A stretch of 64,000 bases of DNA from Escherichia coli (GCF_003334305.1 NZ_QOWS01000026.1); one strand, 5' to 3'; positions 3,057 to 4,936 are shown, numbered from the stretch's first letter. Notes: generated from the letters alone by a model not told the origin. Numbers and translations are program-made.

Positions 3057-4091
3057 ATGAGTAACGCGATTACGATGGGGATATTTTGGCATTTGATCGG
3101 CGCGGCCAGTGCAGCCTGTTTTTACGCTCCGTTCAAAAAAGTAAAAAAATGGTCATGGGAAACCATGTGGTCAGTCGGTGGGATTGTTTCGTGGATTATT
3201 CTGCCGTGGGCCATCAGCGCCCTGTTACTACCGAATTTCTGGGCGTATTACAGCTCGTTTAGTCTCTCTACGCTGCTGCCTGTTTTTCTGTTCGGCGCTA
3301 TGTGGGGGATCGGTAATATCAACTATGGCCTGACCATGCGTTATCTCGGCATGTCGATGGGAATTGGCATCGCCATTGGCATTACGTTGATTGTCGGTAC
3401 GCTGATGACGCCAATTATCAACGGCAATTTCGATGTGCTGATTAACACCGAAGGCGGACGCATGACGTTGCTCGGCGTTCTGGTGGCGCTGATTGGCGTA
3501 GGGATTGTAACTCGAGCCGGGCAGTTGAAAGAGCGCAAGATGGGCATTAAAGCCGAAGAGTTCAATCTGAAAAAAGGGCTGGTGCTGGCGGTGATGTGCG
3601 GCATTTTCTCTGCCGGGATGTCCTTTGCGATGAACGCCGCAAAACCGATGCATGAAGCCGCTGCCGCACTAGGCGTCGATCCACTGTATGTCGCTCTGCC
3701 AAGCTATGTCATCATCATGGGCGGCGGCGCGATCATCAACCTCGGTTTCTGTTTTATTCGTCTGGCAAAAGTGAAGGATTTGTCGCTAAAAGCCGACTTC
3801 TCGCTGGCAAAACCGCTGATCACTCACAATGTGTTACTCTCAGCACTGGGCGGGTTGATGTGGTATCTGCAATTCTTTTTCTATGCCTGGGGCCACGCCC
3901 GCATTCCGGCGCAATATGACTACATCAGTTGGATGCTGCATATGAGCTTCTATGTATTGTGCGGCGGTATCGTCGGGCTGGTGCTGAAAGAGTGGAACAA
4001 TGCAGGACGCCGTCCGGTAACGGTGTTGAGCCTCGGTTGTGTGGTGATTATTGTCGCCGCTAACATCGTCGGCATCGGCATGGCGAATTAA
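3057..4091 (+). CDS. rhaT: L-rhamnose-proton symporter
   Basis: 344-aa polytopic membrane protein [28 protein letters not shown]. Confidence 0.95.
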
Positions 4092-4936
4092 TCTTTCTGC
4101 GAATTGAGATGACGCCACTGGCTGGGCGTCATCCCGGTTTCCCGGGTAAACACCACCGAAAAATAGTTACTATCTTCAAAGCCACATTCGGTAGAAATAT
4201 CACTGATTAACAGGCGGCTATGCTGGAGAAGATATTGCGCATGACACACTCTGACCTGTCGCAGATATTGATTGATGGTCATTCCAGTCTGCTGGCGAAA
4301 TTGCTGACGCAAAACGCGCTCACTGCACGATGCCTCATCACAAAATTTATCCAGCGCAAAGGGACTTTTCAGGCTAGCCGCCAGCCGGGTAATCAGCTTA
4401 TCCAGCAACGTTTCGCTGGATGTTGGCGGCAACGAATCACTGGTGTAACGATGGCGATTCAGCAACATCACCAACTGCCCGAACAGCAACTCAGCCATTT
4501 CGTTAGCAAACGGCACATGCTGACTACTTTCATGCTCAAGCTGACCGATAACCTGCCGCGCCTGCGCCATCCCCACGCTACCTAAGCGCCAGTGTGGTTG
4601 CCCTGCGCTGGCGCTAAATCCCGGAATCGCCCCCTGCCAGTCAAGATTCAGCTTCAGACGCTCCGGGCAATAAATAATATTCTGCAAAACCAGATCGTTA
4701 ACGGAAGCGTAGGAGTGTTTATCGTCAGCATGAATGTAAAAGAGATCGCCACGGGTAATGCGATAAGGGCGATCGTTGAGTACATGCAGGCCATTACCGC
4801 GCCAGACAATCACCAGCTCACAAAAATCATGTGTATGTTCAGCAAAGACATCTTGCGGATAACGGTCAGCCACAGCGACTGCCTGCTGGTCGCTGGCAAA
4901 AAAATCATCTTTGAGAAGTTTTAACTGATGCGCCAC
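4088..4936 (-). CDS. rhaR: AraC-family rhamnose regulator RhaR
   Basis: C-terminal AraC HTH; start assigned to GTG at 4934-4936 giving 282 aa (VAHQLKLL...); ORF track extends to 5110 (alternative ATG at 5026 gives 312 aa). Confidence 0.85.

Follow-up and report, generated by a model that had tools for sequence, protein, structure and literature searches.

The window, by which we mean the whole stretch of 64,000 nucleotides of Escherichia coli DNA (GCF_003334305.1 NZ_QOWS01000026.1) that was analysed, carries a standard E. coli rhaSR-rhaT locus, with rhaR lying downstream of rhaS, divergent from rhaBAD and adjoining rhaT. On the minus strand, rhaS (5010..5846) codes for 278 aa, starts with an ATG behind an AGGAGG motif and ends on TAA at 5012-5010, and rhaR (4088..4936) follows with 282 codons and a TAA (4090-4088) to specify an AraC-family activator. 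The plus strand holds rhaT (3057..4091), which encodes the L-rhamnose/H+ symporter of 344 aa and ends on TAA at 4089-4091; the limits of rhaS and rhaT come from both our ORF list and RefSeq. The rhaR start codon at the centre of this work is a GTG (4934..4936, minus strand) that is separated from rhaS by a spacer of 73 nt (4937..5009, minus strand), whose rhaS-proximal part (5009-4967) is conserved across genera, and that has a GAGG Shine-Dalgarno (SD) motif (4945..4948, minus strand) 8 nt upstream. Beyond this GTG the rhaR frame stays open into rhaS. An ATG (5024..5026, minus strand), which arises from the rhaS codons GAT-GGT and sits 17 nt inside that gene, would give a form of 312 aa, and the longest ORF of the frame (340 aa) opens with another GTG (5108..5110, minus strand). 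A preliminary description of this DNA, made from the sequence alone, had put the overlap between the longest frame and the 3' end of rhaS at 100 bp, which becomes 101 nt once the rhaS stop is counted, and had traced the 312-aa alternative to an ATG at 5026; according to the ORF list, this coordinate and this length are both correct. At its other end, rhaR meets rhaT tail-to-tail in a TTAA palindrome (4088..4091) that holds both stop codons, and a perfect 9-bp inverted repeat (GATGACGCC N8 GGCGTCATC, 4108..4133) falls within the last 15 rhaR codons.

Across 1201 nt the locus is 100% identical to E. coli H15, and the 1.2-kb stretch is found in 5,424 of 5,426 complete E. coli genomes. RefSeq gives H15 an rhaR of 849 nt, a 73-nt gap after rhaS and a 4-bp overlap with rhaT, and the layout in K-12 MG1655 (b3906, NP_418342.2) equals that of H15. 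When set beside the K-12 locus, the window therefore shows the same gene order, the same product lengths (278/282/344 aa), the same 73-nt spacer, the GTG and the 4-bp overlap. Differences from K-12 amount to a few SNPs and nothing substantial: the 282-aa products differ at two residues, and two SNPs fall in the 3' end of rhaS, where they are synonymous for RhaS. The neighbouring RhaS product fits its own NCBIfam equivalog model NF010028 over positions 1-278 of 278 (546 bits). Hence the earlier proposal of a 282-aa product that begins at GTG 4934-4936 and leaves a 73-bp gap after rhaS agrees with the sequence and with RefSeq for H15 and K-12. This also means that the GTG start and the overlap with rhaT re-derive a curated annotation and were already known, and neither raises a new question of broad interest.

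From a comparison across enterobacteria we consider it very probable that GTG 4936-4934 is the conserved, principal start of rhaR. Scanning one genome per species returned 39 loci, 34 of which are enterobacterial rhaR orthologues from about 11 genera (Escherichia, Citrobacter, Kluyvera, Leclercia, Silvania, Buttiauxella, Atlantibacter, Cedecea, other Enterobacteriaceae, Budvicia and Limnobaculum). Without exception, these 34 loci place a start codon in one register (M-x-x-(Q/H)-L-x-L-x-K-x-D-F-F), which is GTG in 27, TTG in four and ATG in three. In 31/34 the frame is closed by a stop at most 78 nt before this start, and very often that stop is the TGA of a TGAGG Shine-Dalgarno motif located 12 nt before the start codon; in most of the orthologous loci (T/C)GAGG(T) occupies the matching place. 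Conservation of the GTG position together with its Shine-Dalgarno motif across genera is clearly non-random, and a non-ATG start of rhaR is shown here for about nine enterobacterial genera besides Escherichia. As for the ATG extension, the only locus among the 34 to keep it is that of the closest relative, Escherichia sp. L003 (99% identity), and two Atlantibacter-type loci have the upstream frame open by chance and without an ATG there. In the sister lineage Escherichia E69 (94% RhaR identity), a 1-nt deletion between the SD and the GTG shifts the upstream ATG into another frame, and a TGA results at -12. With the E69 spacer as query, this lineage was not present in the RefSeq complete-genome set, nearly all complete E. 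coli genomes of which match that spacer at only 80-90%. The position of the 73-nt spacer tolerates insertions in orthologous loci, and in several species the spacer is non-coding because REP-like insertions lengthen it to 121-158 nt.

Family models and structures point to the same residue. The 282-aa RhaR scores 576.3 bits against NCBIfam equivalog NF010025 (PRK13500; cut-off 525), its residues 1-281 covering positions 1-281 of the 282-position model, and the product is a member of the RhaR equivalog family. When the 312-aa form is used instead, the match to NF010025 begins at residue 32. More generally, three NCBIfam RhaR models (282, 282 and 290 positions) have their position 1 at residue 1 of the 282-aa form and match nothing in the first 31-33 residues of the 312-aa form, and the paralogue RhaS begins within three residues of the matching alignment position. 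Pfam finds AraC_binding (3.5e-23), HTH_18 (8.8e-23) and two HTH_AraC matches in RhaR, an AraC-type architecture made up of an N-terminal cupin-like sugar-binding domain and two C-terminal HTH motifs; in the 312-aa form AraC_binding begins at residue 52. Structures of the RhaR N-terminal domain are recovered from the PDB (5u93 and 5u9e; E-values 1e-116 and 1e-108), and the first residue of the crystallised chain 5u93_A is exactly residue 31 of the 312-aa form, the one encoded by the GTG. Together with the register and Shine-Dalgarno conservation in the 34 loci and the E69 frameshift, these matches bear out GTG as the start that had been proposed for rhaR.

Initiation signals also favour this codon. 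Duplexes with the anti-SD are predicted at -7.2 kcal/mol for GTG 4936, -4.8 for ATG 5026, -2.4 for GTG 5047 and +0.7 for GTG 5110, and a partition-function fold of 5160-4860 gives the initiation region a mean unpaired probability of 0.33 at the GTG versus 0.07 at ATG 5026. GTG 5110 is an implausible start, for it has no SD (+0.7 kcal/mol) and lies 101 nt inside rhaS. Our full-text literature search found no experimental data on the RhaR N-terminus or initiation site, and the supplements of a tetracycline-inhibited ribosome-profiling study (PMC4909307) hold no entry for rhaR, rhaS or b3906. L-rhamnose-dependent activation of the rhaSR promoter is known for K-12 RhaR (cited in PMC3870299), from which the window's protein differs at two residues.

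How, then, are we to see the longer form, which is widespread in databases? In public protein collections, at least 1000 contigs carry the 312-aa form and at least 1000 the 282-aa form; their 90% cluster is represented by a sequence of 312 aa. The Egan laboratory is said to number RhaR residues on the 312-aa form (D276, E284, D285), and positions 276, 284 and 285 of the 312-aa translation are indeed Asp, Glu and Asp, which fits this numbering. An annotation in the style of 1987, according to which RhaR has 312 aa, starts at ATG 5026 only and contains the GTG as an internal valine, could appeal to these facts: no start codon is commoner than ATG, 312 aa is the length in many automated annotations and in the cluster representative, and the residue numbering reportedly used in the genetic literature is consistent with the sequence. 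To our minds, however, such a reading has next to no chance of being right. Orthologues are unable to encode the extension, the GAGG motif before the GTG is conserved without a coding reason, and the curated K-12 record has, to judge from the version of NP_418342.2, been revised to 282 aa. The database split between 312 and 282 aa shows only that gene callers disagree.

A milder alternative is dual initiation, in which E. coli makes a functional 312-aa form from ATG 5026 alongside the 282-aa form from one mRNA. Tobin and Schleif reportedly described, in 1990, two in-frame starts of rhaR, each giving an active form of the protein. Reinitiation by ribosomes that terminate on rhaS (translational coupling) is mechanistically possible at ATG 5026, and the long form may possibly arise through such termination-reinitiation coupling, the rhaS stop being only 14 nt downstream of this ATG. 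The frame is free of stops, and the window shares the ATG with K-12, three further E. coli strains and Escherichia sp. L003. This ATG is preceded by a weak AGGGA SD (the -4.8 kcal/mol duplex above), yet the 4-nt spacing is short and the predicted accessibility (0.07) low. Read in the rhaR frame, the 24 spacer codons score a log-odds for codon usage of 0.207 per codon versus an rhaR mean of 0.243, which is within the range of rhaR windows and is reached by 1.1% of stop-free shuffles, so codon usage in the extension frame looks coding-like (P = 0.011). That the 30-codon extension is open at all is not beyond chance, since about 31% of composition-matched spacer shuffles are without an in-frame stop. 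Nearly all of some 5,400 E. coli genomes carry a 161-nt region at 98% identity or more, but at this divergence any E. coli locus would be expected to be as similar, and the at least 1000 public contigs with the 312-aa form show the choice of gene callers only. Against a functional long form speak the stops or frameshift that break the extension in 31/34 loci, the sister Escherichia lineage included. Moreover, the extension matches neither an RhaR family model nor a Pfam domain, the rhaS codons for Asp-Gly fully account for ATG 5026, and both SNPs that separate the window from K-12 in the rhaS overlap, while synonymous in rhaS, are non-synonymous in the extension frame. On balance, we judge dual initiation with a functional long form to be improbable. 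Traces of a long form without function would be compatible with our main explanation, initiation at the GTG.

Coming back to this explanation, we propose that the bulk of rhaR translation would start at GUG 4936-4934 by independent initiation from the gene's own GAGG motif 8 nt upstream, from which we infer that rhaR initiation may be independent of rhaS termination. ATG 5026 would be a by-product of the rhaS codons GAT-GGT, and the 30 open codons that follow it would be a lineage-specific accident and no conserved part of the protein. The combination of GAGG and GUG at rhaR versus AGGAGG and AUG at rhaS probably keeps RhaR output below that of RhaS, and a low dosage of RhaR would suit a positively autoregulated sensor. 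TTG in Atlantibacter, together with GTG kept in about nine genera despite largely diverged spacers, suggests selection for a weak start; such putative selection on the rhaR start codon agrees with an argument published for lacI.

The spacer itself was inspected for other kinds of signal. Its rhaS-proximal part contains a block shared across genera (TAACGCGAAGGCAATCACCGTTTTTT...AATAAT), which in E. coli, at 5009-4967, has diverged. Rfam returned no match within 3900-5300 (E up to 1), and a consensus structure was all but absent when 14 spacers were folded with RNAalifold (-0.81 kcal/mol). We also considered whether the spacer might be a vestigial copy of the rhaSR promoter/operator left behind by tandem duplication of rhaS/rhaR. 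This was rejected: local alignment of spacers to the 300 nt upstream of their own rhaS genes gave matches that were neither consistent nor significant.

At the downstream end of rhaR, the claim that its stop overlaps that of rhaT at 4088-4091 proved right: the plus strand reads TTAA, which makes a 4-bp overlap of the genes in which 2 bp belong to both stop codons. We compared 26 loci in which rhaT is convergent; nine of them show this +4 overlap, and the others abut (five), are 3-8 nt apart (five) or have larger gaps (seven). The larger gaps belong to four Buttiauxella species (39-117 nt), to one locus with a 1.6-kb insertion and to two loci, L010 and L011, whose values stem from an rhaT frame broken into fragments and whose junction sequences look like +4 and 0. 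Where the +4 overlap is found (Escherichia, Citrobacter and Atlantibacter loci), it reads TTAA, CTAG, CTAA or TTAG. Tight tail-to-tail packing hence appears to be old and conserved across genera, whereas the exact overlap drifts. We read the 4-bp overlap as the most compact way for two convergent stops to share a single palindrome (TTAA); its one effect on coding is that it fixes the third base of the final sense codon on either side. A consensus scan found no terminator-like site near the junction, so an intrinsic terminator at this place was rejected; in the whole region the scan counted four such sites versus 2.9 expected from shuffles. Because there is no intergenic terminator, each transcript must end inside the opposite gene, and the rhaSR and rhaT transcripts presumably do so via Rho or at non-canonical sites.

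The inverted repeat at 4108-4133 begins 17 nt past the rhaT stop. In Escherichia and Citrobacter its hairpin is more stable than synonymous recoding would have it, with 0-8 of 400 resamples folding as well, and Buttiauxella, Atlantibacter and Cedecea show a marginal excess. The idea of a hairpin conserved universally was rejected, there being no such excess in Kluyvera, Leclercia, Silvania and Budvicia. One could still attribute a function to the junction, such that antisense transcription or interference between convergent rhaSR and rhaT tunes the rhamnose response and rhaT mRNA uses the hairpin as a 3'-end or pause element. A junction that is tight (from a +4 bp overlap to an 8-nt gap) in 19/26 loci of several genera would be in line with this, as would a hairpin far stabler than synonymous recoding predicts in Escherichia and Citrobacter, the absence of terminator-like sites near the junction and a regional count of them (4) no higher than in shuffles (2.9). 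Yet the hairpin lacks a U-tract on either strand, its core (ACGCC/GGCGT) stems from conserved Thr-Pro and Trp-Arg codons, and Kluyvera, Leclercia, Silvania and Budvicia show no excess stability; in addition, the gap widens to 39-117 nt in some Buttiauxella species, and short convergent overlaps on palindromic stop codons are common in bacteria. We are therefore doubtful that the junction has a regulatory role of this kind. The preferred reading is that of compaction: as palindromic stop-tetramer overlaps (TTAA, CTAG) go, rhaR/rhaT is another such case with nothing to distinguish it, and its orthologues alternate between TTAA, CTAG, CTAA and TTAG or abut as TAA|TCA or TAA|TTA.

Taken jointly, the extension, the spacer block and the hairpin allow for a broader scenario, one that combines a recent gain of 30 N-terminal RhaR residues in E. 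coli and its closest relatives with two undescribed cis-elements, the block at 5009-4967 and the hairpin at 4108-4133. Here, a T-to-C change in an ancestral TGAGG and a 1-nt insertion would have opened the frame to the ATG embedded in rhaS, ribosomes ending rhaS would reinitiate there and a lineage-specific long isoform would accompany the conserved GTG form, and the block and the hairpin might govern the RhaS:RhaR ratio and determine where the convergent transcripts have their 3' ends. We think it unlikely that this scenario holds as a whole, and we stay with the GTG as principal start and with the ATG and its open codons as an accident of the lineage. What follows from this is mainly of value for annotation: that the conserved RhaR starts at the GTG is relevant to rhaSR expression cassettes, to residue numbering and to protein clustering.

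Two kinds of known systems invite comparison. Two in-frame initiation sites give rise to two isoforms in infB and in clpB. As in these genes, a single rhaR mRNA carries two in-frame candidates, the ATG upstream and the GTG downstream, and some SD precedes each. Unlike in infB and clpB, where both starts are conserved, the longer form of RhaR is impossible in nearly all orthologues, and E. coli RhaR falls outside the conserved two-isoform class because its long form is not conserved. The other parallel is with regulators of carbohydrate metabolism that have conserved non-ATG starts, among them lacI (GTG), cra and mlc; the 2024 paper that lists them also notes that the rhaR start is almost always non-ATG in E. 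coli (PMC11445065). Against this background, a weak start codon (GTG or TTG) that persists in rhaR across genera adds a small data point for dosage-limiting non-ATG starts in sugar regulators. The likeness has its bounds, though, as the effect of the non-ATG start has been tested experimentally for lacI (PMC11445065), whereas for rhaR a dosage effect is putative, and as the surveyed lacI-type cases are lone repressor genes, whereas rhaR encodes an activator within an operon of two genes.

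RhaR is listed in public protein collections at 312, 288, 282 and 281 amino acids (aa) within the cluster to which the 312-aa and 282-aa entries belong. The representative of this cluster has 312 aa, and the K-12 versions of 312 and 282 aa are each found on at least 1000 contigs; annotation pipelines disagree on the rhaR start site. When read in the rhaR frame, the rhaS-rhaR spacer (4937-5008, minus strand) resembles coding sequence in its codon usage, with a score of 0.207 per codon that stop-free shuffles seldom reach (P = 0.011); it is not kept as coding sequence in other genera. 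In the corresponding region of Escherichia strain E69 (L004:1926-2003), a sister lineage, one nucleotide is deleted between the Shine-Dalgarno motif and the GTG, and TGAGG replaces CGAGG, so that the 30-codon extension running from the in-frame ATG (5026) to the GTG (4936-4934) falls out of frame and is stopped. The E69 lineage is absent from the complete E. coli genomes of RefSeq, nearly all of which are only 80-90% identical to it in the spacer.

Despite the spacer being non-coding, a block of ~45 nt that directly follows the rhaS stop (4967-5009, minus strand) is kept across genera (TAACGCGAAGGCAATCACCGTTTTTT...AATAAT), and its equivalent lies at the matching position in the rhaR loci L007-L029 of the other genomes compared. 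The block had no Rfam match and no consensus fold, nor did it resemble the rhaSR promoter. Several Citrobacter, Buttiauxella and Atlantibacter species have a spacer of 128-158 nt rather than the usual ~73 nt (loci L005, L010, L017, L020-L025, L030 and L034), and the four long spacers inspected (L005, L010, L017, L023) carry REP-like palindromic elements inserted downstream of the conserved block and ahead of the Shine-Dalgarno motif.

At the other end of the gene, a perfect 9-bp inverted repeat (GATGACGCC N8 GGCGTCATC; 4108-4133, both strands) sits within the last rhaR codons and begins 17 nt beyond the rhaT stop. Its stability far exceeds the expectation from synonymous recoding in Escherichia and Citrobacter and is not above it in Kluyvera, Leclercia, Silvania and Budvicia; no U-tract adjoins the repeat on either strand. 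Kluyvera has another hairpin in its place, adjoining the rhaR stop.

Because the best RhaT-like open frame downstream of rhaR stops short of the junction in L010 and L011, the convergent rhaT frame appears broken there, which points to a frameshift or a pseudogene, or else to a faulty assembly, in both genomes. In E. coli NCTC9064 (L042, locus 2288-3040), a copy of IS1A that has fdhD on its far side ends ~53 nt before the GTG of rhaR, so that rhaS and rhaBAD have been deleted, while rhaR, including its Shine-Dalgarno motif, and rhaT are still intact.
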